NCBI GenBank assembly: GCA_036377655.1
Contig: DASUXZ010000098.1
Location: forward strand, 1 to 37,534
DNA length: 37,534 nt
From: Gemmatimonadales bacterium
GTDB lineage: Bacteria; Gemmatimonadota; Gemmatimonadetes; Gemmatimonadales; GWC2-71-9
Direction of reading: 5' to 3'
The notes beneath the pieces are model-generated. The model was not told the origin of the DNA, ran no database searches, and saw only the letters and a list, made by a program, of their open reading frames with translations. This document shows, piece by piece, positions 3,524 through 37,534 of this stretch. A program made the translations under genes and the position numbers. The stretch's first letter is position 1; each line of letters starts with the position of its first letter.

Positions 3524-3573
3524 CGGGGGCTCGCAGTGGCGCAGGTCCCCAACGTGCGCGGTGGACCCGCCTT

Positions 3574-3605
3574 TGCATCCCTACCGCACCTGACGCAGGG
3601 ATGCA
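3574..3605. promoter_or_regulatory. Inverted repeat TGCATCCCT-N14-AGGGATGCA (possible enhancer/UAS or operator)
   Basis: Perfect 9-bp arms at 3574-3582 and 3597-3605. The centre is about 95 bp upstream of the start predicted from the sigma54 promoter. The right arm abuts the candidate -35 of the divergent activator gene. Confidence 0.4.
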
Positions 3606-3633
3606 TGACAGTGTGTCGCCGGGAAGCTACATT
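3605..3633 (+). promoter_or_regulatory. Candidate sigma70-type promoter for the NtrC-family gene
   Basis: ATGACA (3605-3610), 17-nt spacer, TACATT (3628-3633). This would give a leader of roughly 110 nt before the ATG at 3752. Confidence 0.3.
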
Positions 3634-3751
3634 GGTGGTGTCGTGGCGCAACAATGGGGTGTGGCTTCGAGCACACGATTTGCTAGGATCTGCCCCAGTC
3701 TGTGGTACTCGCGAAACTGTTTTCGATCGGACCAGCGCCAAGGAGCCTGAG

Positions 3752-5281
3752 ATGGGCAGCTCGCTCGCCTACAACGTCAAGCGGCCGGACGGGAGTTCGC
3801 CTTCCGATACGGAGCGGGATCCGCTCTCGATCCCGGGGGAGGTGAAGGCCAGTATCCGGATCCTCGTCGTGGACGACGAGCGGACCCTCCGGGAGAGCTG
3901 CGCGAGCGTCCTCCAGATGGACGGCTTCAACGTCACGGTGATGGGGCGGGGCGAGGAGGCGCTCGAGACGGTCCGGCGCCGCAAGTTCGACATCATCCTC
4001 GTCGACCTCTACATGTCCCAGGTCTCGGGGCTCGAGATCCTTCGCGCGGCGCTCGACGCCTACCGCGACACGATCGTCGTGGTGATGACGGGGAACCCGA
4101 GCGTCACGAGCAGCATCGAGGCGCTCAGGGCCGGCGCCTGGGACTATCTCCCGAAGCCGTTCTCCGCCACACACCTGCAGGTGCTCGTCGGCCGCGCGTC
4201 GCATGCGGTCATGGTGGGGCGGGAGGCGCAGGACCTCCGCCTTCAGCTCATGAAGCAGCATGGGCACAGCGACAAGATCGCGCTCATCGGGATGTCGCCG
4301 GCATTCCGCAAGGCGGTCGAGCTGGCCCGGAAGGTCGCGGCGACGGACGCGTCGGTCTTCATCAGCGGCGAGAGCGGGACGGGCAAGGAGGTCATCGCCC
4401 AGTTCATCCACCAGAACAGCCGCCGTGCGAGCCGGGCGCTCGTGCCGATCAACTGCGCGGCCCTGCCGGAGGGGCTGCTCGAGAGCGAGCTCTTCGGCCA
4501 CCGGAAGGGTGCGTTCACGGGCGCCGACCGGGACAAGCCCGGCCTCCTCGAGACCGCGAACGGCGGGACGCTCTTCCTCGACGAGCTCACCGAGATGTCG
4601 ATGCCGCTCCAGGCCAAGCTCCTCCGCGTCATCCAGGACGGCGTCGTCCGGCGCGTGGGCAGCGAGACCCAGGACGCGGTCGTGGACGTGCGGTTCATCT
4701 CCGCCACCAACCGGGATCCGCAGGAGGCCGTCGACCAGGGGGCGCTCCGCGGCGACCTCTTCTACCGCCTCCGCGTCGTGCCGATCAAGCTTCCGCCGCT
4801 CCGGAAGCGGCTCGAGGACATCCCGCTCCTCGCCAATCATTTCCTGACGTATTACTGGCAGCGCCATCGCCAGATGGGCGACCGGCTTCCCAAGCTGAGC
4901 GAGGAGAGCATCGCCTACCTGCGCTCGCGCCCCTGGCGCGGCAACGTCCGCGAGCTGCAGAACGCCATCGAGCACGTGGCCGTGCTCGCGGAGCCGGACC
5001 AGGTCATCCAGCCGGATCACATCCCGATCTACGACGACGGGCAGCCCGAGTGGCCGGCCGATGCGCCCGTGTCGTCGCCGGCGGTGATGGACGAGGCGTA
5101 CCATGCGGCCAAGGATCGCGTCATCGCCCAGTTCGAGCGCGAGTACCTGTCGCGGCTGGTCGGCCGCGCCGGCGGCAACATGTCGAAGGCCGCGCGGCTC
5201 GCGAGCATCGACCGGACGACGCTCTACCGCCTGATGGACAAGCACGCCTTCCAGCGCAACGACGTGCTCGAGGACGGCTGA
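3752..5281 (+). CDS. Sigma54-dependent response regulator (NtrC family enhancer-binding protein)
   Basis: I chose the internal ATG at 3752 with AAGGAG at 3740-3745; the track ORF starts at 3536. The receiver is canonical: ILVVDDE, ILVDLYM, VVVMTGN, DYLPKPF. The AAA+ sigma54-interaction domain carries GESGTGKE, ESELFGHRKGAFTGA (GAFTGA loop), TLFLDE, RVIQDG and RFISATN. The C-terminal Fis-type HTH reads GGNMSKAARLASIDRTTLYRLM. Confidence 0.9.
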   Translation: MGSSLAYNVKRPDGSSPSDTERDPLSIPGEVKASIRILVVDDERTLRESCASVLQMDGFNVTVMGRGEEALETVRRRKFDIILVDLYMSQVSGLEILRAALDAYRDTIVVVMTGNPSVTSSIEALRAGAWDYLPKPFSATHLQVLVGRASHAVMVGREAQDLRLQLMKQHGHSDKIALIGMSPAFRKAVELARKVAATDASVFISGESGTGKEVIAQFIHQNSRRASRALVPINCAALPEGLLESELFGHRKGAFTGADRDKPGLLETANGGTLFLDELTEMSMPLQAKLLRVIQDGVVRRVGSETQDAVVDVRFISATNRDPQEAVDQGALRGDLFYRLRVVPIKLPPLRKRLEDIPLLANHFLTYYWQRHRQMGDRLPKLSEESIAYLRSRPWRGNVRELQNAIEHVAVLAEPDQVIQPDHIPIYDDGQPEWPADAPVSSPAVMDEAYHAAKDRVIAQFEREYLSRLVGRAGGNMSKAARLASIDRTTLYRLMDKHAFQRNDVLEDG

Positions 5282-5301
5282 ATCTGGAAAGCACGCGCGT
5301 C

Positions 5302-6462
5302 GTGAGCGGAACGGCGGGCAGCGAGCGCCGGCGGCCGGGGCCCCAGGGCGCCGCGCCGCCGGCGCACGTCTGGGACCCCGCCCCGGCGCCGGCCGGGCCA
5401 CTCGCGCCTGCCCTCTGGGGCGCGCTGCAACGTGCGGTGGAGCAGGCCCAGCACCAGTGGGACAAGGTGGTCGAGCACGCCGTCACGCCGGAGGAAGCCG
5501 CGACGAACCTCGCCGCCCTCGCCAACGTCCTTCGCGCGTGCGCGGCCGGCGGCGACGCCGACCTCGAGTCGCTGCCGCGGACCCAGCTCGCCCGGCGGCT
5601 CGTCTCGGTGGTGCGCACCGGGTTCGTCGAGCAGGCCGCCGCGCTCGTACCGGCGCCGGACGGGGCCGGGCTGCTCGCCGTATTCGCCGCGTTCGAGCGC
5701 GTGGCGCGGCATCTCGAGCCCGACTGGGCGCAGCACCTCGCCGACCGCCTGACCGGCCCCGACGGGCTCGAGCTCGTGGTCGAAGTGGCGCACGACCTCC
5801 GCTCGCCGCTCACGTCCATCCTCTTCCTCGCCGAAACGCTGCAGCGCGGCCGGAGCGGCCCGGTGACGGAGGTGCAGGAGCGGCAGCTCGGGCTCGTCTA
5901 CAGCGCCGCGTTCGGGCTGAGCGCCATGGCGAGCGACGTGATCGAGCTCGCGCGCGGCGGCGACCGCCTCGTCGACCTCGACCCGATTCCGTTCTCCGTC
6001 CGCGACATCCTCGAATCGGTGCGCGACATCGTGCTGCCGATCGCGGAAGAGAAGGGCCTCACCGTCCGCCTCGAGTACCCGAAGGGCGACTTCCGCATCG
6101 GCCACCCCGTGGCACTGAGCCGCGTGCTGCTCAACCTCACCACGAACGCGCTCAAGTTCACGAACGAGGGGCACGTCGAGCTCGTGGGTCGCGAGGCGGC
6201 CCCGGGCAGGGTCGAGTTCAGCGTTCGCGATACCGGGCGCGGCATCCCGCCGCAGAACATGGCCACGCTCTACGAGCCCTTCCGGCGCCGCCAGCGCGAA
6301 GGCGAGTACGCCTTCTCGGGCACCGGCCTCGGCCTCTCGATCTGCCGGAAGCTCGTCGAGGCGATGGGCTCGCGCCTCGAGGTCGAGACCGAGGCGGGGA
6401 AGGGAACGCGGTTCCATTTCATCCTCGACCTCCCCTCCGCCGGCCAGTCGGGCGGCCTCTGA
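5302..6462 (+). CDS. Soluble sensor histidine kinase (HisKA + HATPase_c, no TM segments seen)
   Basis: H-box EVAHDLRSPLTSILFLAE, N-box LLNLTTNALKFT, G1 VRDTGRGIP and G2 GTGLGLSICRKLV. The start is uncertain: GTG 5302 is the first start after the NtrC stop at 5281, and CTG 5284 is possible. The track ORF start at 5050 overlaps the preceding gene. The roughly 170-aa N-terminal region has no motif I recognise. Confidence 0.8.
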   Translation: MSGTAGSERRRPGPQGAAPPAHVWDPAPAPAGPLAPALWGALQRAVEQAQHQWDKVVEHAVTPEEAATNLAALANVLRACAAGGDADLESLPRTQLARRLVSVVRTGFVEQAAALVPAPDGAGLLAVFAAFERVARHLEPDWAQHLADRLTGPDGLELVVEVAHDLRSPLTSILFLAETLQRGRSGPVTEVQERQLGLVYSAAFGLSAMASDVIELARGGDRLVDLDPIPFSVRDILESVRDIVLPIAEEKGLTVRLEYPKGDFRIGHPVALSRVLLNLTTNALKFTNEGHVELVGREAAPGRVEFSVRDTGRGIPPQNMATLYEPFRRRQREGEYAFSGTGLGLSICRKLVEAMGSRLEVETEAGKGTRFHFILDLPSAGQSGGL

Positions 6463-25781: not shown

Positions 25782-26414
25782 ATGCCGAAGAATGTAGCCG
25801 CCATGGTGCGGCTCATGGTGGTCACCGACGACGCGCTCGTGCGCGGCCGCGACCTGGTGGCGCTCGCGCTCGCGGCGGAGCGTGGCGGCGCCACGTCGCT
25901 CCAGCTCCGGCTCAAGGATGCGACCCCGCGCGCGCTCGCGGACGCCGCGCGCGCCCTGATCGCTGCGCTTTCCATTCCCGTGCTCGTCAACGACCGGCCG
26001 GACGTCGCCCGCGCCGCGGGAGCCGCCGGCGTGCACCTCGGCCCGGGCGACCTCCCGCCGCGGCTCGCCCGCCGCGTGCTCGGCCCCGATGCGGTCATCG
26101 GCGCATCGGTCGGGTCCGAAGGCGAAGCGCTCGCCGGAGGGGATGCGGATTACTGGGGAATCGGCCCGTGGGCGGCGACGGCGACGAAGGGCGATGCGGG
26201 CGCCGCGATCGGCGCTGACGGCTTCCGCCGGCTCGCGGGCGTGGCCGGGGGTCGGCCGTGCATCGCCATCGGGGGCATCGTGCCGGCGGACGTGCCGGCG
26301 GTGCTGGCGGCCGGCGGAGGGGGCGTGGCAGTGGCCTCGGGCATTCTCGCCGCGGCGGACGTCGAAACCGCGGCGAGGAGGTACGCGGAGCGGTTAGGGA
26401 GTGGAGCGGGCTGA
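25782..26414 (+). CDS. thiE: Thiamine-phosphate synthase
   Basis: Motifs: RLMVVTDD, SLQLRLKD, LVNDRPDVARAAGAAGVHLG, IGASV, YWGIGPWAAT, IAIGGI, VAVASGI. The start is ambiguous: ATG 25782, 25803 or 25815. Confidence 0.8.
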   Translation: MPKNVAAMVRLMVVTDDALVRGRDLVALALAAERGGATSLQLRLKDATPRALADAARALIAALSIPVLVNDRPDVARAAGAAGVHLGPGDLPPRLARRVLGPDAVIGASVGSEGEALAGGDADYWGIGPWAATATKGDAGAAIGADGFRRLAGVAGGRPCIAIGGIVPADVPAVLAAGGGGVAVASGILAAADVETAARRYAERLGSGAG

Positions 26415-27386
26415 GGCGTCCCGCGCGCGGCGCGCCTCCCCGACGGCGCGCAGGTGCTCGCGGTAGGTGCGCGTGAAGACGTGGCGCCCGTCGGGCTGCG
26501 CCACGAAGAAGAGATACGGCACGGAATCAGGATAGAGCGCGGCCTCGATGCTCCGCTCGCTCGGCGAGTTGACCGGGCCGGGAGGAAGGCCGGGGTTCAG
26601 GTAGGTGTTGTACGGCGAGGCGAATCCGTAGTCCTTCTCGAAGAGCCGCTTCTTCCGCTCGCCGGTGCGGAGCATGATCGCGTACTGCACCGTGGGATCG
26701 GCCTGCAGCGCCATGCCGATCCGGAGCCGGTTGTGGTAGACCCCCGCGATCACCTCCCGCTCCGCATCCACGCGCGCCTCTCCCTCCACGATCGACGCGA
26801 GCGCCAGGAGCTCGCCGCGCGTGAGGCCCAGCGTGTCGAGGCGGGCCGTCCATTCCGGCTTCCAGCGCGTCTCGAACTCGAGGGCGAGCCGGCGCACGAG
26901 CTCGCGCGCGGTGATGTCGGGCGGGAGCTGGTAGGTGTCGGGACGGAGATAGCCCTCGAGCGACCGGGCGCGGATGCCGAGCGAGTCCGCGAGCAGGGAA
27001 TCGGTCGCGGCGGCGGCGAGCGAGTCGGCCGGGATCCCGAGGCGCTCCTCGACGAGGTCGGCGACCTCGCCGATCGTGAGCCCTTCGGGAATCGTGAGCC
27101 GCACCTCCTCCTGCCGCCCTTCCTGCAGGAGGTCGAGGAGCGCCGCGTGCGAGGAGCCGCGGGGGATCTGGTAGACGCCCGCCAGCACCGCGCGATCGCG
27201 CCCGGTGAGCTTGGCGCGCACCTTGAGCAGGAAACGGTTGCCGACGAGCCCGTGCGCGTCGAGCGAGTCGAGCACCTGGCCGAAGCTCGCTCCGGGCGGC
27301 ACGATGATCCGCTCCGTGGTGCCGTCGCCCGCGGGCACGCCGTCGCAGGCCGCGAGAAGGAGCAGCGCAGGAAAGAGTCGTCGCAT
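26394..27386 (-). CDS. mltG: Endolytic murein transglycosylase MltG (YceG family), lipoprotein-type signal
   Basis: MRRLFPALLLLAAC (lipobox-like). Motifs: LASIVEGEA, VYHNRLRIGMALQADPTVQY, YNTYLNPGLPPGPVNSP. The start overlaps the ruvX stop (ATGA). Confidence 0.85.
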   Translation of the reverse strand: MRRLFPALLLLAACDGVPAGDGTTERIIVPPGASFGQVLDSLDAHGLVGNRFLLKVRAKLTGRDRAVLAGVYQIPRGSSHAALLDLLQEGRQEEVRLTIPEGLTIGEVADLVEERLGIPADSLAAAATDSLLADSLGIRARSLEGYLRPDTYQLPPDITARELVRRLALEFETRWKPEWTARLDTLGLTRGELLALASIVEGEARVDAEREVIAGVYHNRLRIGMALQADPTVQYAIMLRTGERKKRLFEKDYGFASPYNTYLNPGLPPGPVNSPSERSIEAALYPDSVPYLFFVAQPDGRHVFTRTYREHLRAVGEARRARDASARSTP

Positions 27387-27869: not shown

Positions 27870-29117
27870 CTACTGGGCCATCGTGGCGAAGAATTCCTTG
27901 TTGTTCTTGGTGCGCTTCATCCGCTCGAGGAGGAACTCGAGCGCCTCGACGGGCGGCATGTCCGCGAGGAAGTTGCGGAGGAGATAGACCCGGTTGAGCT
28001 CGTCCTTGTCCATGAGGAGCTCTTCCTTGCGGGTCGAGGTGCGCTGGATGTCGATGGCGGGGTAGATGCGACGGTCGGCGAGGCGGCGGTCGAGCACCAG
28101 CTCCATGTTGCCGGTGCCCTTGAACTCCTCGAAGATGACTTCGTCCATCCGGCTGCCCGTGTCGATGAGCGCCGTGGCGATGATCGTGAGGCTGCCGCCC
28201 TTGTCGATGTTGCGTGCCGCGCCGAAGAAGCGCTTCGGCTTCTGGAGCGCGTTCGCGTCCACGCCGCCGGAGAGGATCTTCCCGGAGTGCGGCACCACCA
28301 CGTTGTGCGCGCGGGCGAGGCGGGTGATCGAGTCGAGGAGGATCACGACGTCCCGGCCGTGCTCCACGAGGCGCTTGGCCTTCTCGATGACCATGTCCGC
28401 CACCTGCACGTGGCGGTCCGCCGGCTCGTCGAAGGTGGAGGAGATCACCTCCGCCTTCACGTTCTCCTCCATGTCGGTGACTTCCTCGGGGCGCTCGTCG
28501 ATGAGGAGCACGATCAGCACGATCTCGGGATGGTTCTCCGAGATGGCGTTGGCGAGCTTCTGCATGAGGATCGTCTTGCCGGCCTTCGGCGGCGCCACGA
28601 TGAGGCCGCGCTGGCCCTTGCCGATCGGGGAGAGGAGGTCCACCACCCGCATCGAGAGGTCGCCGTTCTTCCGCTCGAGGCGGATGCGGCCGTCAGGGTA
28701 GCGCGGCTTCAGGTTGTCGAAGCCGATCCGGTGCTTGGTCTTCTCCGGCTCCTCGAAGTTGACGCTCTCGACCTTGAGGAGCGCGAGGTACCGCTCGCCT
28801 TCCTTCGGCGGGCGGACCTGGCCCATCACCGTGTCTCCCGTGCGCAGGTCGAACCGCTTGATCTGGCTCGGGCTCACGTAGATGTCGTCGGGGCCGTACA
28901 GGTAGTTCCAGTCCTGGCTGCGGAGGAACCCGTATCCCTCGGGGAGGATCTCGAGCACGCCCTCGCCGCGGATCACGGTGTCCTTGTCGAGGAGCGACTG
29001 CTCGATCTTGAAGATGAGGTCCTGCTTGCGGAGGCCTGAGTAGTTGGTGATGTTCAGCTCTTCAGCCAACGAATGCAGTTCCGCGACGGACTTCTGCTTC
29101 AGTTCAGCGATATCCAC
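27870..29117 (-). CDS. rho: Transcription termination factor Rho
   Basis: 415 aa. Motifs: [52 protein letters not shown], Walker [40 protein letters not shown]. The start is GTG at 29117 with no Shine-Dalgarno upstream. Confidence 0.95.
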
Positions 29118-29300
29118 GGAGGGAGCTCCGAGCGGGTTGGCCGACGGTCGACGCGGCCGGGGGGTGGAGTTGGATCTGGACCTGGGATGAGAGCGGATCG
29201 TCGAAGACTCGGCGGATCGGGTATCGGCGGATCAGGTAACTGGGGAGTTCCGGCGGCGCGGAGCGTGTGGGTACGGAGGCGTGTGAGGCCGCGGCGCGAC
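29118..29300 (-). promoter_or_regulatory. C-rich/G-poor 5' leader of rho (rut-like; candidate autoregulatory attenuator)
   Basis: By hand count over 29161-29280 the + strand has 57 G and 22 C, so the rho-sense RNA is about 48% C and 18% G. The motif GATCCGC (sense) recurs three times (+ strand GCGGATC at 29193-29199, 29212-29218, 29227-29233). Confidence 0.45.
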
Positions 29301-29445
29301 CGGTAAGGCAAGTTGCAAAGCTAGAGGGGGCCGTATCGTCCGTCAAGACCGATCCCGTCACCCCGCGCCACCCCCGGCCACCCTCGACGATCTCCTCTTT
29401 GCCTTCGAAGCCTGGCGGGTCGTCCGCCTCGGGAACCGCGAGGTC

Positions 29446-30525
29446 GTGGATGCCGTGGTCGCACCGGCGCACCGGGGGCCTTCCGAGGCGCTCGCCGGCG
29501 GCCTCCGGCGGTGGCGAGGGGCGCATTACTGGTCGGACGCCGGGCGCACCGCCCTCGTGCTCGTGCGGCCGGTCGCCCCGGACCGGCCGGAGCGGTGGGG
29601 GCTGCACGCCCTCCTCGCCCTCCTCACGATCCTCTGCGCCCTTGGCGCCGGTGCCGCCCTCGCCGGCGACTGGTACCCCCCGCGCCCGCCGCGGCACCTC
29701 GGCGCGGTCGCGGGAACGATCGCGGCCGGGCTGAGCTTCTTTGCCGACGTGATCGCCGGGGGGTGGCGCGACATCCTCTCCGGCGCCTCGTTCGCCTTTC
29801 CGCTTCTCGGCATCCTGCTCATCCACGAGCTGGGCCATTACGTCGCGGCGCGCCGCTACGCCATCGACACCTCGCCGCCGTTCTTCCTCCCCGTCCCGCC
29901 GACCCTGTCGCCGATCGGCAGTCTCGGCGCGTTCCTGCGGCTCCGAACGCCGGTGCTCGACCGGCGACAGCTCCTCGACGTCGGGGCCGCCGGGCCGCTC
30001 GCCGGGTTCGTCGTCGCCATCGGCGTGCTCGTCTGGGGCTACTCGGTGTCGGAAGGCCTGTCGCTCGGGCAGGAAACGCCCGGGGAGTTCGTGACCTTCG
30101 CCGGCCGGCAGATCTATCTCGGCGACTCGATCCTCACCTGGGCGCTCCGCTCCTGGTTCTTCCCCGACGCCGCGGCTGTCGCCCTGAGCCTGCCTGCGTT
30201 TGCCGGCTGGACCGGGGCCTTCGTCACGGGGCTCAACCTGATGCCGTTGAGCCAGCTCGACGGCGGGCACGTCCTCTACGCGCTCCTCGGGCGGCGCCAG
30301 GCCGTCGTCGGCGGTCTCACGATGATCGGCCTCTTCGTGCTCGGATTCTTCTCGCCGAGCTGGTGGCTGTGGGGCCTCGTCGCACTCGTGGTCGGCGGCG
30401 GGCGGTGGACCCATCCCTCGGTGGTGACGCCCGGGCGCGCGGTGCCGCCGCGACGGCGGTGGATCGCCTGGGCGTGCATCGCGGTGTTCATCGTGACCTT
30501 CGTGCCCGCCCCGTTCCGGATCTAG
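29446..30525 (+). CDS. Site-2 protease family (M50) intramembrane zinc metalloprotease
   Basis: GTG start at 29446. HExxH is in a TM helix (LLIHELGHYVAARRY). The second motif is GLNLMPLSQLDGGHVLYA. There are multiple TM segments. Confidence 0.85.
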   Translation: MDAVVAPAHRGPSEALAGGLRRWRGAHYWSDAGRTALVLVRPVAPDRPERWGLHALLALLTILCALGAGAALAGDWYPPRPPRHLGAVAGTIAAGLSFFADVIAGGWRDILSGASFAFPLLGILLIHELGHYVAARRYAIDTSPPFFLPVPPTLSPIGSLGAFLRLRTPVLDRRQLLDVGAAGPLAGFVVAIGVLVWGYSVSEGLSLGQETPGEFVTFAGRQIYLGDSILTWALRSWFFPDAAAVALSLPAFAGWTGAFVTGLNLMPLSQLDGGHVLYALLGRRQAVVGGLTMIGLFVLGFFSPSWWLWGLVALVVGGGRWTHPSVVTPGRAVPPRRRWIAWACIAVFIVTFVPAPFRI

Positions 30526-30535
30526 CGCCGGCGCA

Positions 30536-30564
30536 TTGCGCCGCTCACGCGCGTTCGGCATAAT
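30536..30564 (+). promoter_or_regulatory. Candidate sigma70-type promoter of the small-protein cassette
   Basis: TTGCGC (30536-30541), 17 nt, CATAAT (30559-30564). It begins 11 nt after the S2P stop and lies about 44 nt upstream of the ATG at 30608, which has GGAGGA at 30595-30600. Confidence 0.5.
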
Positions 30565-30607
30565 GCACCTGTCCCGCCACACAGTACGACCGACGGAGGA
30601 GGCGCCG

Positions 30608-30895
30608 ATGAACCTCCAGAGCATGCGCACGCCTTCACGCGACCCGCGCGAGCCCGTCTTCCACGCGCTCGACCCGGTGCAGGTCGAGGGACGCGTCGTC
30701 GCCGTTTCCCTCATCGTCCGCCTCGCCGACGACGGCGCCTGGCGCGGCCGCCTCCGGTATTTCGACGATGCCGAGCCGCTCGCCGAGTGGGAGACCGCCG
30801 AGATCTTCTGCGGGGATACCGAGGACGAGCTCTGGCAGGGCGTCCAGCGCCTTCGCGAGCATCATTTCCGCGACCTCTTCCGGTCGCTCAGCTGA
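30608..30895 (+). CDS. Hypothetical small acidic protein (95 aa)
   Basis: The internal ATG 30608 has a strong GGAGGA RBS. Sequence: MNLQSMRTPSRDPREPVFHALDPVQVEGRVVAVSLIVRLADDGAWRGRLRYFDDAEPLAEWETAEIFCGDTEDELWQGVQRLREHHFRDLFRSLS. I recognise no family. It is tightly followed by the next gene. Confidence 0.55.
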   Translation: MNLQSMRTPSRDPREPVFHALDPVQVEGRVVAVSLIVRLADDGAWRGRLRYFDDAEPLAEWETAEIFCGDTEDELWQGVQRLREHHFRDLFRSLS

Positions 30896-30903
30896 GGAGC
30901 GCC

Positions 30904-31089
30904 ATGTCGGACGCCGATCCCGTCAGCAAGCTGCGCCACGACCTCTCCAACCCGCTCTCGGCCCTCCTGGCCGAGACGCAGCTGCTGCTCCTCAACGAGG
31001 CGGCGATCGATCCGGAAACCGTCGCGGGGCTGCGCGAGATCGAAGGGCTCGCGATCCGGATGCGCGCCCTCCTCCGGGACGGTCAGTAG
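30904..31089 (+). CDS. Stand-alone HisKA/DHp-like mini-protein (61 aa) with an H-box and no ATPase domain
   Basis: ATG at 30904 with GAGGAG at 30894-30899. Sequence: MSDADPVSKLRHDLSNPLSALLAETQLLLLNEAAIDPETVAGLREIEGLAIRMRALLRDGQ. RHDLSNPLSAL matches the histidine-kinase H-box (compare AHDLRSPLTSI in the kinase at 5302-6462). The length fits a two-helix hairpin. Confidence 0.55.
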   Translation: MSDADPVSKLRHDLSNPLSALLAETQLLLLNEAAIDPETVAGLREIEGLAIRMRALLRDGQ

Positions 31090-32864
31090 GCGGCGCGCCC
31101 GCGCGACTGCGCCACCGCGCCCGCGGCGAGATAGGCCGCCAGGAAGGCGAGGCTTCCGCCGCTCGCGACCGCCCGCCCGGTCCAGCCCAGCTCGCTCGTC
31201 GAGACGAATCCTTCGATCAGACCCGAGACCACGAGGCAGGTGACCGCCGCCCCGACCATGCGGATGGCGCGGCGCCCCGCGAGCACGAGCGCGTCGCTCC
31301 GCGTGAGCGGTCCCGGCGCGATGATCGCGGTCCCGAGGAGGAACCCGGCCGCACCGGCCACCCAGATCGCGAAGAGCTCGAGCGCGCCGTGGCCGAGGAC
31401 GAACTGCGAGAGGTACCCGAACAGCCCTGCATTGGTGAAATGGCCGGCCGTCGCGCCGAGCTGGAGCCCGTTGAAGGCGAGGAGCACGAGCGAGCCGATG
31501 CCGAGGAAGGCGCCGCCGGCAAAGCAGTAGAAGGCGACACGCACGTTGTTCGCGATGATGCCCGACGCCGCGAGCGGCCGGCCGCCCGCGTCGATCTCGA
31601 CGAAGCCCTCCCCGGCGGCGCTCCGCTCGACGCCGACTTCCGCGCGCTCGAGCAGCACGTCCGGCAGCACCTCGGCCGCCACTTCCGGCCGCTCGCGGAC
31701 CAGCCGATAGCCGACCGTCCCGGGAATCATGAACGCGAGGAAGGCGGCGAGCACGTACCGGCGCGCCGCGACGACGGCCCCGGGGCACTCGAACGCGAGC
31801 ACCCGGCCGACGGTGCCGAGCCGATGCCCGTCGCCGCGGTAGAGCGCGTTGTGCCCCGCCGCGACGAGCCGCTCCACCCGGCGGACGACGTCGGGCGCCG
31901 CGCGGTACGTCCGGAGCCGCGCGAGGTCCGCGGCGATCTCGCGATAGCGCGCGGCGAAGTCGGGAAGCTCCGCCGGCGCGAGCGACTCGAGGCCGCCCGC
32001 CGCCGCGCGCCGCACGAGCACCTCGAACTCGGCCCAGCGGTCGCGCTGGGCGGCCTCGAGCTGCTCGGCGAGCCCGCCGCGCGCGGCGCCGCGCGTCCCG
32101 AGCGCGCCGCGCCGGCGCTCGAGCTCCGCCGCATGGAGCGCGAGCAGCGACTCGGCCGGGTCCCCCGCGCCGACGTCCGCCGAAACGATCGCGGCGTCGA
32201 GGCGGGCGGCGAGGTTGCGCGCCAGGCGGTCGCGTGCGGCGGGGGGAAGGTCGCCGGCCCGCGCGGCGAAGCCGGAGAGCAGGCGGAACTCGTCTTCGTC
32301 GAGCAGGGGCGCCGCGAGCGCCGGCTCGCCGCCGCGCGGCCTCGCGAGGGCCGGGCGCTCCTCCGGCCGGTCGCGCACGACGATCGTCCCGGCGGCGAGG
32401 TCGCCGATCCGCTTCCCGCGCGGATGAAGCGCCACGAGCACCGCGCCGGCGAGGTATGGCGGCGGCAGGAAATCGGCGATCCTGAGCAGATTGCGCACCG
32501 CCGCGGAGCCGAGGCTCACGGCGTGGCCCGTGTCCGCGACGACCCGGATGCCGAGGGCCCGCTTGCCCGGTGTCTGGCCGTTCCGCAGGCCTTCGAAGAA
32601 CGTGAAGTACCCGTACCACCCCGCGAAGGCGACCATCACGATCACGGCGCCTCCGAGGCGGCCGGGCGAGAACCCGGCCCGCGCCATGAGCGCGATCAGC
32701 AATCCGCCCGCGAGGCCGACGCCGCCCAGGATGACGAAGTCGAGGAGCGCCGCCGCCGCGCGCGAGCCGAGGCCGGCGATCTCGTAGTCGAGCACGACGT
32801 GCTCGGGCGTCTCGACCTCGAGGTGCTGGCGGAGGTCACGCGGGCCGGATTGCAGTGCGGGCAT
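31083..32864 (-). CDS. Fusion membrane protein: N-terminal RDD domain + C-terminal SpoIIM (DUF95)-like domain
   Basis: 593 aa. The RDD region reads YEIAGLGSRAAAALLDFVILG...FEGLRNGQTPGKRALGIRVV...VRNLLRIADFLP...GKRIGDLAAGTIVVRD. The middle is a helical Arg/Ala-rich domain containing FAARYREIAADLARLRTY. The SpoIIM-like region reads IIANNVRVAFYCFAGGAFLGIGSLVLLAFNGLQLGATAGHF...VLGHGALELFAIWVAGAAGFLLG. Confidence 0.75.
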   Translation of the reverse strand: MPALQSGPRDLRQHLEVETPEHVVLDYEIAGLGSRAAAALLDFVILGGVGLAGGLLIALMARAGFSPGRLGGAVIVMVAFAGWYGYFTFFEGLRNGQTPGKRALGIRVVADTGHAVSLGSAAVRNLLRIADFLPPPYLAGAVLVALHPRGKRIGDLAAGTIVVRDRPEERPALARPRGGEPALAAPLLDEDEFRLLSGFAARAGDLPPAARDRLARNLAARLDAAIVSADVGAGDPAESLLALHAAELERRRGALGTRGAARGGLAEQLEAAQRDRWAEFEVLVRRAAAGGLESLAPAELPDFAARYREIAADLARLRTYRAAPDVVRRVERLVAAGHNALYRGDGHRLGTVGRVLAFECPGAVVAARRYVLAAFLAFMIPGTVGYRLVRERPEVAAEVLPDVLLERAEVGVERSAAGEGFVEIDAGGRPLAASGIIANNVRVAFYCFAGGAFLGIGSLVLLAFNGLQLGATAGHFTNAGLFGYLSQFVLGHGALELFAIWVAGAAGFLLGTAIIAPGPLTRSDALVLAGRRAIRMVGAAVTCLVVSGLIEGFVSTSELGWTGRAVASGGSLAFLAAYLAAGAVAQSRGRAAY

Positions 32865-32931: not shown

Positions 32932-33780
32932 ATGACCGTCGCTCTCCGCCCGCTCTCGATGGGCGAGCTCCTGGATCACGCCTTCCGGCTCTTCCGGGAG
33001 CTCTTCGTTCCGCTCGTCCTGGTGCAGGTGATCTGTTCCTCCCTGCCGCTCCTCCTCAACCTGTTCGGCGCGGCGAGGGGAACCGGGCCAGGCGTCGGCG
33101 ACCTCGTCACCTACCTCATCGCATTCGTCCTCGGTTCCCTCGCGAGCGCCGCCACCGCGTACATCATCTCGGAGAACTACCTCGGGCGTCCGCTCGCCGC
33201 GGGGGACGCGCTGCGGCGGGCCGTTCCGAGGATCGGCGACGTGATGCTCCTCTCGCTCGGCGTCGGCTTCGTGGTGGTCGTCGCGGCCCTGCCGGCCATC
33301 CTCATGATCGGCGCCGGCTCGATGTTCACCGTCTACGCGGCGACGAGCGGCGAGGGAGGGCTCGCCGGCGGGGGGATCGGCATGGTCCTGCTCGGGCTCG
33401 CGCTGCTCGTCATTCCCTTCGCGGTCTTCTCGGGCCTGTCGGTCGCCACGCCTTCGCTCGTGCTCGAGCCGGCCAGCGCCGGCCGCGCGATGAGCCGGTC
33501 GTGGCAGCTCACCAAGGGCTTCCGGCTCCGGATCATCGGGCTCCTGTTCGTCGTCCTCGCGATCATCGTCGTCCCGATGTTCGCGCTCTCGATGATCGGG
33601 GCGATGTTCGGGAGCGGCGAGTCGCGTGCCGCCGAGGTCTTCTTCACGGCGGTGGTCGGGGTGGTGTCGCTCATCGTCACGCCACTCCTCTACTGCGTGC
33701 TCACGCTGCTCTACTACGACCTCCGCGTGCGCAAGGAAGGGTACGACCTCGAGGTGCTCGCGAACGAGCTGCCCGCCTGA
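32932..33780 (+). CDS. Polytopic membrane protein (UPF0259/DUF975-like family often found next to DUF4129 genes)
   Basis: 282 aa with 6-7 hydrophobic helices. The N-terminus is LSMGELLDHAFRLFRELF and the C-terminus is LLYYDLRVRKEGYDLEVLANEL. The family assignment is tentative. Confidence 0.6.
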   Translation: MTVALRPLSMGELLDHAFRLFRELFVPLVLVQVICSSLPLLLNLFGAARGTGPGVGDLVTYLIAFVLGSLASAATAYIISENYLGRPLAAGDALRRAVPRIGDVMLLSLGVGFVVVVAALPAILMIGAGSMFTVYAATSGEGGLAGGGIGMVLLGLALLVIPFAVFSGLSVATPSLVLEPASAGRAMSRSWQLTKGFRLRIIGLLFVVLAIIVVPMFALSMIGAMFGSGESRAAEVFFTAVVGVVSLIVTPLLYCVLTLLYYDLRVRKEGYDLEVLANELPA

Positions 33781-33784
33781 GCCG

Positions 33785-34396
33785 ATGCAGCAGCCCTCGC
33801 CGGACTCCCTCCGGAGCGTCCTCGACTCGGTCTTTTCGGGCGCGGCCTACGCGTGGCGGCCCGACAACGAGACGTCGGCGGCGCTCGTGCGGTACTGGCG
33901 GGCGCTGCTCGCCTGGCTCGCGGACATGAGCGAGGCGAACCCGCTGCTCTACCGGCTCCTCATCGCGGGCCTCGCCGCCGTGCTCGTGGCGATCCTGGCG
34001 CATGCCGCGTGGCTCCTCGTGCGCACGGTGCGCGGCGCGGCCGTCCCGCTGAACCCCGACCTCCCGGAGATCGTCCGCGAGCGGCGGACCGCCGGCTGGT
34101 ACTTCGACGCAGCCGACGCGGCCGCGTCCGGGGGGCGCTTCGCGGAGGCGCTCCAGCTCGGCTTCGTCGGCGTGGCGCTCACGCTCGAGGAGCGGGGGCT
34201 CCTCCGCTATCACCCCGGCAAGACGCCGGCGGAGTGCACCCGCGAGGCGCGCGTCGCCGGGGCGGACCGGGACCGGCTGCGGTCGCTCGTGCGGACGCTC
34301 TATGCGTGCGCGTTCGGCGGCCGGCGATGCACCGCGGAGGAGTACGCCGCGTGGCGATCGCTCGCCGCGGGGGAGTGGCATGCGGCCGCGCACTGA
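33785..34396 (+). CDS. DUF4129 domain membrane-anchored protein
   Basis: The ATG at 33785 lies 4 nt after the upstream stop. There is one TM helix (LLYRLLIAGLAAVLVAILAHAAWLLV). The DUF4129-like segment reads AASGGRFAEALQLGFVGVALTLEERGLLRYHPGKTPAECTREA...LVRTLYACAFGGRRCTAEEY. Confidence 0.7.
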   Translation: MQQPSPDSLRSVLDSVFSGAAYAWRPDNETSAALVRYWRALLAWLADMSEANPLLYRLLIAGLAAVLVAILAHAAWLLVRTVRGAAVPLNPDLPEIVRERRTAGWYFDAADAAASGGRFAEALQLGFVGVALTLEERGLLRYHPGKTPAECTREARVAGADRDRLRSLVRTLYACAFGGRRCTAEEYAAWRSLAAGEWHAAAH

Positions 34397-35567
34397 GCTC
34401 GCCGTCGCCCTCGCGGCGGTGCTCCTCCTCGGGGTCATCGTGATCGCGGCGGGCAGCCGCGGAACACGCCCGGAGGACCAGGATGTCCGCCGCTCGACGT
34501 ACCTCGCCGGGCCGTTCGGCGCGCGCGGCTACGCCGAGGCGGCGGGGCGCCTCGGGATCACGGTCGCGCGCCACCGCGCGCGCACGCGCGACCTCCCGAC
34601 GCGGCCGGACCTGGGCCCCGGGACGACCTGGGCCGTGCTCGACCCCGCGGCGCCGCTCTCGCCGCTCGATGCGCTCGAGCTCGCGCGCCTCGCCGGCTCG
34701 GGCACGTCGCTCATTCTCGCCGGACCCGGCGCGGAAGCGGCGATGGTCTGCTACGGCTACGCGAGGCGGGCGACCGGCCCCGCATCCGCGCGCTTCGGCG
34801 GGGAGGACCTCGCCGTACGCGCGGTGCTCTTCCGGCTTCCCGACTCGCTCGCGCACCGCCGGTCGCTCCTCGACGACGGATCGGACGTCGGCTGCGGGCC
34901 GATCGCGGCGCGGGCGGAGGTCCTGCTCGCGACATCGGAGGCGCCGGTCGCGATCCGGCTCACGCCCGACTCCGGCGGGACGGTGACGCTCGTGGCCGAT
35001 GGGCAGCTCTTCGCGAATCGCGCGCTCCGCGAGACCGCCGCCGGCGAGTTCGCGCTCGGCCTCGTCGCAGGTCGCACCGCCCGACTCGTGGTGGACGAGT
35101 ATCATCAGGGCTTCGGCCCGGGCGGGGGGATGCTGTCGGCCGTGCGGCGCTGGCTCGGCGACTCGCCGTGGGGATGGGCGGTGATCCACCTCTTCGCGGT
35201 GGCGGTGCTTGCGCTGCTCGTCGCCGCGGTGCGATTCGGCCCGCCCCGGCGCGTGATCGTCCGGCGGCGGCGGTCCCCGCTCGAGCACGTGCGCGCGCTC
35301 GCCAATGCGCTCGCGGCGGCGCGGGGGCACGACGAGGCGATCGCGCTCCTGGCCCGCGGGCTCCGCCGCCGGCTCGCCCGTCCCGGCGAGCAGCTCCGCG
35401 GGGACGTGCGGGTCTGGCTCGCTTCGCTCGCGCGCCGCGTCTCGACGCCCCGGGCCGCCGCGGCGGTCGCAACACTCCAGTCGCTGACTCGCGGGGGGGC
35501 CGACGCCGTCGGCGTCCGCCGCGCCGCCCTTGCCGTGGAGGAGCTGTGGCAGGAACTGAAACCGTAG
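34380..35567 (+). CDS. DUF4350-like protein (N-terminal TM, periplasmic/extracytoplasmic domain, second TM, C-terminal helical region)
   Basis: The internal ATG 34380 overlaps the upstream gene by 17 nt. Motifs: MRPRTELAVALAAVLLLGVIVIAAG, STYLAGPFGARGYAEAAGRLG, LILAGPG, VTLVADGQLFANRAL, VVDEYHQGFG, and second TM WGWAVIHLFAVAVLALLVAAV. Confidence 0.65.
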   Translation: MRPRTELAVALAAVLLLGVIVIAAGSRGTRPEDQDVRRSTYLAGPFGARGYAEAAGRLGITVARHRARTRDLPTRPDLGPGTTWAVLDPAAPLSPLDALELARLAGSGTSLILAGPGAEAAMVCYGYARRATGPASARFGGEDLAVRAVLFRLPDSLAHRRSLLDDGSDVGCGPIAARAEVLLATSEAPVAIRLTPDSGGTVTLVADGQLFANRALRETAAGEFALGLVAGRTARLVVDEYHQGFGPGGGMLSAVRRWLGDSPWGWAVIHLFAVAVLALLVAAVRFGPPRRVIVRRRRSPLEHVRALANALAAARGHDEAIALLARGLRRRLARPGEQLRGDVRVWLASLARRVSTPRAAAAVATLQSLTRGGADAVGVRRAALAVEELWQELKP

Positions 35568-36529
35568 CGCCGATCGACGCCGCCCGCGCCGCCGAGCAGG
35601 GCGAGGCCATCCTGTCGCAGCTCGGACACGTGGTGCTCGGGCAGCCGTCCGCGCTCCGGGAGGCGCTCGCGGCGCTCGTCGCCCGGGGGCACGTCCTTCT
35701 CGAAGGCGTGCCCGGCACCGCCAAGACCCTGCTCGTGCGGACGCTCGCGCAGGTGTTCGGGCTTTCGTTCCGGCGGATCCAGTTCACGCCCGACCTCATG
35801 CCGTCGGACGTCACCGGCATCAACCTGCTCGGTGGCGGCGGCAGCTTCACCTTCCGCCCGGGTCCGATCTTCGGCGACCTCGTCCTCGCCGACGAGATCA
35901 ACCGCGCGCCCGCGAAGACCCAGGCCGCGCTGCTCGAGGCGATGCAGGAGCGGAGCGTCACGGTGGACGGCACGTCGCATCCGCTTCCACCCGCCTTCAC
36001 CGTGTTCGCGACGCAGAACCCGATCGAGTTCGAGGGGACCTATCCGCTCCCGGAAGCGGAGCTCGACCGGTTCCTCGTGAAGGTGAGCCTCGGGTACCCG
36101 GCGGCGGAGGTCGAGCAGGGGATTCTCGCCCGGGTCCTCGAGGGTTTCGAGGCGGACGATCCGGCGAGCTTCGGCGTCACGCAGGTGCTCGACGGACCGG
36201 GACTCGCGGCGCTCAGGCGCGCCGCGCGCGCGGTGCGGGTGGAGCCGAGCCTCACCGGCTACATCACGGCGATCGTGCGTGCCACCCGCGACGCGCCGGC
36301 CCTCACCCTCGGCGCCTCGCCGCGCGCCTCGGTCGCGCTCCTCAAGGTGAGCCAGGCGACGGCGCTGCTCGACGGCCGGACCTTCGTGACGCCGGACGAC
36401 GTGAAGGCGCTCGCGCCCGCCGTGCTGCGCCATCGTGTGGCCGTCGCGCCCGAGCTCGAGCTCGAGGGCGTCGCCGCGGACGCGGCGCTCGCCTCGATCA
36501 TCGAGCGGATCGAGGTGCCGCGCACGTGA
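35546..36529 (+). CDS. MoxR-family AAA+ ATPase
   Basis: Motifs: Walker A HVLLEGVPGTAKT, RIQFTPDLMPSDVTG, Walker B LVLADEINRAPAKTQAALLEAMQE, VFATQNPIEFEGTYPLPEAELDRF, GASPRAS. The proposed GTG start at 35546 follows GGAGGAG but with short spacing, and it overlaps the upstream gene end. The start is uncertain. Confidence 0.85.
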   Translation: MAGTETVAPIDAARAAEQGEAILSQLGHVVLGQPSALREALAALVARGHVLLEGVPGTAKTLLVRTLAQVFGLSFRRIQFTPDLMPSDVTGINLLGGGGSFTFRPGPIFGDLVLADEINRAPAKTQAALLEAMQERSVTVDGTSHPLPPAFTVFATQNPIEFEGTYPLPEAELDRFLVKVSLGYPAAEVEQGILARVLEGFEADDPASFGVTQVLDGPGLAALRRAARAVRVEPSLTGYITAIVRATRDAPALTLGASPRASVALLKVSQATALLDGRTFVTPDDVKALAPAVLRHRVAVAPELELEGVAADAALASIIERIEVPRT

Positions 36530-37534
36530 TCCTGCCGACGCGCCGCTGGATCGCCGGCGCCGCGGCGGCCGCCGTCCTCGCTCCGCTGGCGGCCATCGCG
36601 CCCGACCTGCTCGGGCTGTACCTCGTCGCCGTGCCGCTGTGGGTGGCGCTCTTCCTGTTCGACGGGGGGCGCGCCGCCCGTCATCCGTTGCGGATGGAGC
36701 GGGAGCCGCCGCCGGCATTCTCGGTCGGCCGCACCCTCGCCGTGACGTATCGGTGGATCCTCGGCGGGGCCGCGCCGCAATTCATCCGCGTTCGCGAGCT
36801 GTTTCCCGACCCGCTCGGCGGCGCCGGCGTCCCCGAGCGCGTCATCCGCCTCATTCCCGGCGCGAACGAGGAGCGGCTGGACGTCACGCCGGTGCGGCGA
36901 GGCATCGGGACCGGCGGAAAGACGACGGTCCGGCGCCTCGGCCCGCTCGGCCTCGCCTGGCGGCAGGACACGCTGGACGCGCCGTGGGAGGCGACGGTCT
37001 TTCCGCGGCTCGCCGGCGCCTCGCTGCGCGCCCTGCCCACGCGCGCCGCGCGGCAGCGGGAAGCGGGCCTCCGGGCCATGCGCCGTCCGGGAGAGGGCCG
37101 GCTCTTCGAGAGCCTCCGCGAATGGATTCCCGGCGAGGACACGCGGATCATCGACTGGAAGGCGACCGCGCGGCGGGGCAAGACGATCGCGCGCGTCTAC
37201 GAAGACGAGCGCCGGCAGCAGGTGCTTCTCGTCGTGGACGCCGGGCGGCTGCTCACCTCGGAATCGGACGGCGTTCCGCGGCTCGAGGCGGCCATCGAGG
37301 CCGCGCTCCAGCTCGCGCACGCGGCGGTGCAGCAGGACGACGACGTCGGGATCCTCGTCTTCGCCGATACGATCCAGGCGTACGCGCCGCCGGCGCGGGG
37401 GCGGCGCGGGCTCCGGGCGGTTCTTGCGGCGCTCGCCGCGGTGGAAGGCAAGCTCGTCGAGAGCGACTATCCGTCGGCCTTCCGCTACATCGCCGCGCGG
37501 AGCAGGAAGCGGGCGCTCACGGTGCTCTTCACCG
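36526..37534 (+). CDS. DUF58 (vWA-like) protein, 3'-truncated by the window end
   Basis: This ORF is not in the track because it runs off the window. My translation from the GTG at 36526 (GTGA overlap with the MoxR stop) reads VILPTRRWIAGAAAAAVLAPLAAIAPDLLGLYLVAVPLWVALFLF (2 TM). It continues ...GEGRLFESLREWIPGEDTRIIDWKATARRGKTIARVYEDERRQQVLLVVDAGR...VGILVFAD, which is the DUF58 signature. Confidence 0.8.
   Translation, partial: MILPTRRWIAGAAAAAVLAPLAAIAPDLLGLYLVAVPLWVALFLFDGGRAARHPLRMEREPPPAFSVGRTLAVTYRWILGGAAPQFIRVRELFPDPLGGAGVPERVIRLIPGANEERLDVTPVRRGIGTGGKTTVRRLGPLGLAWRQDTLDAPWEATVFPRLAGASLRALPTRAARQREAGLRAMRRPGEGRLFESLREWIPGEDTRIIDWKATARRGKTIARVYEDERRQQVLLVVDAGRLLTSESDGVPRLEAAIEAALQLAHAAVQQDDDVGILVFADTIQAYAPPARGRRGLRAVLAALAAVEGKLVESDYPSAFRYIAARSRKRALTVLFT

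Follow-up and report, generated by a model that had tools for sequence, protein, structure and literature searches.

What can a protein do that consists of the phospho-accepting hairpin of a histidine kinase and nothing else? The question is raised by a 61-residue open reading frame (ORF), here called mini, in a 37,534-nucleotide contig of a Gemmatimonadales bacterium (DASUXZ010000098.1 of assembly GCA_036377655.1). This contig, which is contig C98 of a 2.48-Mb metagenome-assembled genome that is 74% complete, is the window of our analysis. The mini ORF occupies positions 30904..31089 of the plus strand and starts 8 nucleotides after the stop codon of an ORF for an acidic 95-residue protein, p95 (30608..30895, plus). 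Both ORFs are present as originally predicted, as is His12 of mini (codon 30937..30939, plus), the putative phospho-acceptor, which lies in the H-box L10-R-H12-D-L-S-N16-P-L18 (LRHDLSNPL). We find that mini is a HisKA dimerisation/phosphoacceptor (DHp) domain and nothing else, and that it is a real gene under strong purifying selection. Its most striking feature is its linkage to rho, the gene for the transcription termination factor, which the original prediction missed.

Profile and fold comparisons agree on the identity of mini. The window protein matches the Pfam HisKA profile (PF00512) with E = 1.3e-4 and 22.4 bits, which is below the gathering score of 26.9 bits, and 22 of 22 diverse relatives match the same profile at E <= 0.01 (best 1.3e-10). 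An AlphaFold2 model of mini is a confident hairpin (predicted local distance difference test, pLDDT, 91.5) with helices at residues 6-29 and 37-59, and the protein ends two residues past the second helix. The nearest PDB chains identified by Foldseek are DHp domains: 7ltq, the GacS DHp in 7n0e, RetS, ERS1, LOV-kinase chimeras and EnvZ. These chains have a template modelling (TM) score of ~0.7 on the query, and the top two reach a probability of 0.99, but with E values (>0.1) that are non-significant for so short a fold. A profile of the mini family had no match among PDB sequences at E <= 0.01, and the pointer to DHp domains among known structures came from the fold comparison alone. Neither mini nor p95 matches an NCBIfam family, and mini does not match the Spo0B-type Pfam family. 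The profile, the modelled hairpin and the nearest structures together bear out the original description of a stand-alone HisKA DHp mini-protein that carries no catalytic or sensor domain.

The comparative data establish that this small gene is real. A word-indexed search returned 1522 mini clusters, and most of the 120 that were listed are ~60 residues long. A phmmer scan of 1.84 billion representatives gave only 102 matches, all of 41-207 residues except for one spurious 1100-residue repeat protein without an aligned stretch. None has a catalytic domain, and a complete sensor histidine kinase can be rejected because HATPase_c is missing from the polypeptide of mini and of all 102 relatives. 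More than 1500 clusters and over 190 genomes keep the length and frame, with an internal stop in one match only. Database proteins of 130-158 residues that end in mini are not true fusions: they have been extended too far upstream or are frameshifted assemblies of p95 and mini. A contig scan returned mostly full-length Acidobacteriota kinases with the H-box HEVNNPLAA, not minis.

Three families of the order Gemmatimonadales are relevant here: the family of the window (f1), Gemmatimonadaceae (f2) and the sister family of f1 (f3). In a sample of 301 genomes across the phylum, mini occurs in one copy per genome in 114 of the 126 f1 genomes and is present in all three sampled f3 genomes. The Gemmatimonadaceae orthologues, which were found by profile search, are ~62-86 residues long. 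Both cassette genes are under purifying selection, a check proposed with the original prediction: the ratio of nonsynonymous to synonymous substitution rates (dN/dS) is ~0.14 for mini (Nei-Gojobori, 30 orthologues; dS ~1.2, near saturation) and ~0.33 for p95. Among the three closest genomes, mini has a dN of 0.03-0.10 against a dS of 0.6-1.3. GC contents at the three codon positions (0.75/0.43/0.89 for p95 and 0.76/0.40/0.90 for mini in a window of 72% GC) follow the pattern expected for real coding frames.

The linkage of mini to rho holds in all three families. In the window's family and its sister family, every locus that has sufficient flanking sequence shows rho upstream of the cassette in divergent orientation. 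Four arrangements are seen, in which rho is followed by mini alone, by M50 and mini, by p95 and mini, or by M50, p95 and mini. The window has the last of these, with rho at 27870..29117 (minus; Pfam Rho_N, Rho_RNA_bind and ATP-synt_ab) and a gene for an M50-family membrane metalloprotease at 29446..30525 (plus; Peptidase_M50, E = 2.6e-18), which separates rho from the cassette in some loci and not in others. On the downstream side the neighbour differs between loci and may be an RDD-SpoIIM membrane protein gene, a receiver-HD_5 gene, or an iron permease gene and then the receiver-HD_5 gene. The window has the RDD-SpoIIM gene (31083..32864, minus, convergent with mini; Pfam RDD and SpoIIM), which is a frequent but not constant neighbour. 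The receiver-HD_5 gene is convergent with mini in some genera. It was rejected as a fixed partner, as its orthologue in the window genome is on another contig next to aconitase.

In Gemmatimonadaceae the order of genes is different and rho is still adjacent. There a rigidly conserved five-gene block consists of an AraC-type regulator (plus), a CheY-like receiver (plus), a TPR-like gene (minus), mini (plus) and rho (plus), as in loci L057 (3784-7006), L058 (3088-7148), L074-L092 and L174-L253. At 19 of 19 loci the gene downstream of mini is rho on the same strand, and the same holds for 68 of 68 loci that have at least 1.5 kb of downstream flank. The CheY-like receiver is present in 57 of the 63 loci with enough upstream flank and is a canonical single-domain receiver (Pfam E = 6e-16) in which the DD, D, T and K residues are visible. 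At least 51 of 80 loci also carry the AraC-type regulator, whose N-terminal domain is only weakly receiver-like (Pfam E = 0.013; its PDB profile matches mix receivers and IMPDH at E values of 1e-3 to 1e-2). The adjacency of mini and rho has thus persisted in three families although their relative orientation changed and all other neighbours were replaced. Rho itself has a long Arg/Gly-rich N-terminal extension in Gemmatimonadaceae that is absent from the 415-residue Rho of the window.

Among 76 sequences from the three families and from a set of receiver-like-DHp relatives described below, the His of the H-box is invariant (76/76), as are Pro at H+5 and Leu at H+6, and Asn occupies H+4 in 74 sequences, with one Gln and one Ser as the exceptions. 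The acidic residue at H+1 is variable: Asp or Glu is found in 44 of 47 sequences from the window's family and its sister family, the window included, versus 4 of 21 in Gemmatimonadaceae. In four HisKA kinases studied by Willett and Kirby, the H+1 acid was required for kinase but not phosphatase activity, whereas Thr or Asn at H+4 was required for phosphatase but not kinase activity (PMC3510030). By these rules, the mini family keeps the putative phosphatase determinant and relaxes the putative kinase determinant. This combination would be expected of a protein that never autophosphorylates itself yet carries out phosphoryl chemistry on receivers.

The closest relatives outside the order may offer a hint of the partner domain. 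They are ~190 residues long and join a receiver-like N-terminal domain to the same DHp, with the H-box RHD[IVM]NNPLT and no catalytic domain. Their HisKA scores (29-44 bits) are above the gathering score, and a profile of the N-terminal domain matches the receivers KdpE, FrzS, NtrC and Spo0F at E values of ~0.01-0.1. The family is rare (L059 4650-8323; L073 3416-4018; P0223, P0246, P0252, P0254, P0255, P0259 and P0260). One member heads a pair of genes for a kinase and an NtrC-type regulator, and another follows a CNNM/CorC gene.

On this evidence we think it somewhat probable that mini acts as a receiver-directed phosphatase or phosphotransfer module. Two hairpins are predicted to form the usual four-helix DHp bundle, and the face below His12 would dock a receiver domain. 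With no ATP-binding domain, mini should be incapable of autophosphorylation and would act on a receiver that is already phosphorylated. It could dephosphorylate this receiver through the His/Asn(H+4) phosphatase motif. Alternatively, His12 could accept the phosphoryl group and pass it to a second receiver, which would make mini a relay like Spo0B in minimal form. Within Gemmatimonadaceae, mini would probably partner the CheY-like receiver and the AraC-type regulator of the block, the latter having a possible receiver-like N-terminus. For the window's family, the partner would be a receiver encoded elsewhere, and p95 would share the transcript of mini as an optional accessory. The isolated DHp of EnvZ reportedly retains activity when split from its ATPase domain. 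The activity of the isolated EnvZ DHp is also referred to in a domain survey (PMC3591291).

Several observations weigh against a receiver-directed role. No receiver gene adjoins mini in the window, and the receiver and mini of Gemmatimonadaceae are separated by the oppositely oriented TPR-like gene, so they do not form one operon. The matches of the fused N-terminal domains to receivers are weak (E values of 0.001-0.1). The helix above His12 has ~6 residues, which is shorter than in typical DHp domains. Finally, a receiver-directed model leaves the invariant rho linkage unexplained.

The most serious rival is that mini is an anti-kinase or decoy, whose hairpin binds the DHp of a kinase in a mixed bundle, as in RetS-GacS, or sequesters a response regulator, with no phosphoryl chemistry of its own. 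We consider this unlikely, although it has points in its favour: mini is essentially only a dimerisation surface, the GacS DHp from the RetS complex (PDB 7n0e) is among its best structural matches, and each genome has ~40-55 kinases as possible targets. A passive binder, however, does not need an absolutely conserved His or the Asn at H+4 that all but two sequences retain. The invariant His favours a true phospho-intermediate, as in a relay, or a catalytic role over a purely steric decoy. A close paralogous DHp that might be the target is also missing from the genome, where the best other match has 34% identity (E = 0.02). The original prediction had proposed a heterodimer with the window kinase at 5302-6462. 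The sole support for it is a set of 10 identities in 21 positions of the H-box region (pairwise E = 0.007), and the H-box is all that this kinase shares with mini, which is also why we rejected mini as its paralogue. Residue conservation and gene context favour a receiver-directed role, as phosphatase or relay, over a passive decoy.

A split histidine kinase is a less probable alternative, and we would give it only a small chance. Here mini would be phosphorylated in trans by a separate HATPase_c protein and would then phosphorylate a response regulator. Split HisKA/HATPase arrangements have been predicted in domain surveys (PMC3591291), the window mini has the sequence H-D-x-x-N, and the sampled genomes contain a few short frames that bear HATPase_c. 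Against this, the acid at H+1 that is needed for kinase activity (PMC3510030) has been lost in 17 of 21 Gemmatimonadaceae orthologues, and the helix above His, where a catalytic domain docks, is nearly absent. No gene that encodes HATPase_c alone was noted beside mini in the annotated or probed loci, which were not scanned systematically for the domain. This speaks against a dedicated split kinase, although a catalytic-domain partner may be encoded away from mini.

The unbroken adjacency to rho suggests two further models. If the receiver-directed reading is extended as far as the gene context allows, mini could be the smallest natural histidine phosphotransferase, a bare DHp dimer that lacks a second domain and acts as a kinase-independent relay with the CheY-like receiver and the receiver-like transcription factor and whose output controls rho expression or Rho activity. 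We regard this full scheme as a long shot. It is slightly harder still to credit that the hairpin modulates Rho or rho expression directly, with the H-box as no more than an inherited scaffold. The adjacency is invariant across three families despite the rearrangements around it, as such a function would predict. However, the residues that are conserved are precisely the ones involved in phosphoryl chemistry, the receiver-like-DHp relatives outside the order do not adjoin rho, and the adjacency may be inherited synteny beside an essential gene.

One last possibility, that mini is what remains of a full-length kinase after decay or that its ORF arose by chance in GC-rich DNA, is excluded by the comparative data: its score below the Pfam gathering threshold in the window is outweighed by the length and frame kept in more than 1500 clusters, by a dN/dS of ~0.14, by downstream genes that vary and are often convergent, and by a conserved promoter-like motif that precedes the gene. 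The convergent RDD-SpoIIM gene of the window ends at 31083 and overlaps the end of mini by 7 nucleotides (31083-31089), stop codon included, so the downstream space is too small for a decayed catalytic domain, and the earlier remark that there is no HATPase_c-like remnant here is correct. No terminator-like hairpin was found between these two genes.

The second protein of the cassette is more enigmatic. With 18 Asp or Glu residues versus 12 Arg and no Lys, p95 has a net charge of about -6. It matches no family in Pfam or NCBIfam, and a word-indexed search found only 39 clusters of homologues. AlphaFold2 predicts five strands in a beta-meander and then two C-terminal helices (pLDDT 85), and the window sequence contains the motif DDGAWRGRLRF...TAEIFC. 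A fold search of the PDB gave no credible match. The best hits, SAS-6 heads and CaMKII hubs, have TM scores below 0.5 and are regarded as noise, and no resemblance to the GHKL fold emerged from this search. Neither a family nor a PDB fold match therefore supports the suggestion that p95 is the specificity or sensor subunit of mini.

The idea of p95 as a conserved upstream partner fares better in part. Whenever both genes are present, p95 ends between -4 and +11 nucleotides from the start of mini (27 of 27 loci), and several junctions have ATGA or GTGA overlaps that are typical of translational coupling. A p95 profile search was positive in 81 genomes of the window's family and in three of the sister family. 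In the former family, both genes occur together in 74 genomes, only mini in 40, only p95 in 7 and neither gene in 5, while p95 is absent from 19 of 19 Gemmatimonadaceae mini loci that were probed. No H-box ORF was found downstream of a solitary p95 in the four loci examined. Because genomes with mini alone and with p95 alone both occur, p95 is a facultative accessory of mini and not an obligatory subunit.

Other p95 sequences are also informative. In one genome (G119; L016 ~1380-1500; G119:C42:2148-2288), a 51-codon p95 remnant (…ADDGAWLGRLQF…) lies directly upstream of an intact mini, which looks like the loss of p95 caught in progress. Domains similar to p95, with the pattern G-x-W-R/H-G-x-L-x-F ... 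T-A-D/N-I/L-F, are found in other families of the class (f4, f5 and f7; loci L061-L065 and L070-L072). These distant domains are fused in either N-to-C order to a second domain with the motif LPLPPFEVW. Neither domain is in Pfam, and no DHp gene adjoins them. A metal site in p95 made of Cys68, His85 and His86 was considered and rejected, since these residues are not retained in the distant domains.

A promoter-like element precedes the cassette. The hexamers of the originally proposed promoter, TTGCGC (30536-30541) and CATAAT (30559-30564) with 17 nucleotides between them, are indeed there. From the window alone, to call this a good promoter was an overstatement, as the -35 hexamer matches at 3 of 6 positions and a sigma-70 consensus scan over 29000-31300 reported no promoter. 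Comparison with relatives rescues the call. They carry the motif ATTGC[AG]T[AT]A, ~14 nucleotides, and then TAnAAT or TAnnTTT(G), at 53-140 nucleotides upstream of the first gene of the cassette, and the downstream half often extends to TTT(G) in the form TAnAAT(C/G)TTT (loci L008-L045). All 19 occurrences of the 9-mer ATTGC[AG]T[AT]A on both strands of 298 kb of related loci are upstream of the cassette. The motif is kept whether p95 or mini is the first cassette gene, and with or without an upstream M50 gene. By this comparison, the window copy (ATTGCGCCGCT...CATAAT, 30535..30564, plus) is a degenerate version of the motif of the relatives.

Conservation of this motif and its specificity for the cassette position support the earlier description of an autonomous cassette. 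The sequence TAnnTTTG is the -7 box of Bacteroidota-type promoters, which the downstream half of the cassette motif resembles. The motif could be a first view of Gemmatimonadales promoter architecture, or it could be the site of a specific regulator. Both of the Shine-Dalgarno sequences that had been described as strong are present in the window: GGAGGAGG (30595..30602, plus) is 5 nucleotides before the p95 ATG, and GAGGAG (30894..30899, plus) overlaps the p95 stop codon ahead of mini. The latter is not conserved in relatives.

The rest of the window contains several other recognisable genes. Beyond rho is mltG/YceG (26394-27386, minus). Divergent from the RDD-SpoIIM gene, an operon at 32932-37533 encodes a membrane protein, DUF4129, DUF4350, MoxR (AAA_3) and DUF58/VWA proteins, and this MoxR-type cluster is conserved but uncharacterised. 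At 3536-6462, a gene for an NtrC-type sigma-54 activator (receiver, Sigma54_activat and HTH_8) precedes that of the histidine kinase at 5302-6462, whose H-box is VAHDLRSPLTS. This kinase is ~25 kb from mini, and in genome G198 a HisKA match in the same profile range is ~13 kb from mini.

Two-component signalling usually involves a kinase and a regulator, with Spo0B- or HPt-type (histidine phosphotransfer) intermediates as known extras. With mini, a natural protein has been cut to the phospho-acceptor hairpin. Strong purifying selection maintains it in single copy across much of a soil order that is abundant but poorly studied. Nature thereby offers a way to see which roles, be it phosphatase, relay or inhibitor, remain open to a DHp that has no catalytic domain, and mini is also a minimal scaffold for studies of structure and specificity. 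At a size of 60 residues, it is often annotated as 'hypothetical' and overlooked in censuses of signalling proteins. The unbroken linkage to rho raises the question of whether termination is wired to phosphorylation signalling in Gemmatimonadales. If a relay that controls rho or Rho were true, two-component signalling would be coupled to global transcription termination across a bacterial order.

How mini compares with known systems depends on whether architecture or likely activity is considered. Orthodox HisKA DHp domains (the 'domain A' of EnvZ, or the NtrB type with the H-box HE[IV][KN]NPL) have the same two-helix hairpin and share the His, the acid at H+1 (in the window mini), Asn at H+4 and Pro-Leu at H+5/H+6. 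The isolated DHp of EnvZ is said to be a stable dimer with phosphatase and phosphotransfer activity in vitro. Unlike these domains, mini is a whole gene product of 60-86 residues that has no sensor, linker or HATPase_c, and its helix above His is unusually short. In a SMART survey, 3.66% of HisKA proteins lacked HATPase and 1.7% kept HE/DxxN/T (PMC3591291). The HisKA-only 'possible split bifunctional kinases' of that survey are in the same category as mini, although the survey gives a count only. Apart from this count, our literature search for DHp-only or HisKA-only proteins returned unrelated cases of split CheA and of RocA. It found no description of the 60-residue mini family, its phyletic spread, p95 or the rho linkage.

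Other systems are comparable to mini in its proposed modes of action. Small proteins that tune two-component signalling, as mini is proposed to do, include Sda and KipI of Bacillus and MgrB of E. coli. Sda is a helical hairpin. In contrast to mini, these proteins are not homologous to DHp and have no H-box. RetS-GacS (PDB 7n0e and 6dk7), which is among the best structural matches, is a precedent for a DHp that regulates another kinase through a mixed bundle. RetS is a large hybrid kinase, however, whereas mini is a free hairpin that keeps its catalytic residues and has no close paralogous DHp. Spo0B of Bacillus and ChpT of Caulobacter are DHp-like four-helix bundles with an inactive catalytic domain that shuttle phosphate between receivers, which mini is only predicted to do. 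They have ~190-225 residues and a C-terminal alpha/beta domain that is degenerate and catalytic-like. By architecture mini is not of the Spo0B/ChpT type, as it has neither this second domain nor a match to the Spo0B Pfam family, yet it may work alike, and the receiver, mini and AraC-type regulator of Gemmatimonadaceae recall Spo0F, Spo0B and Spo0A.

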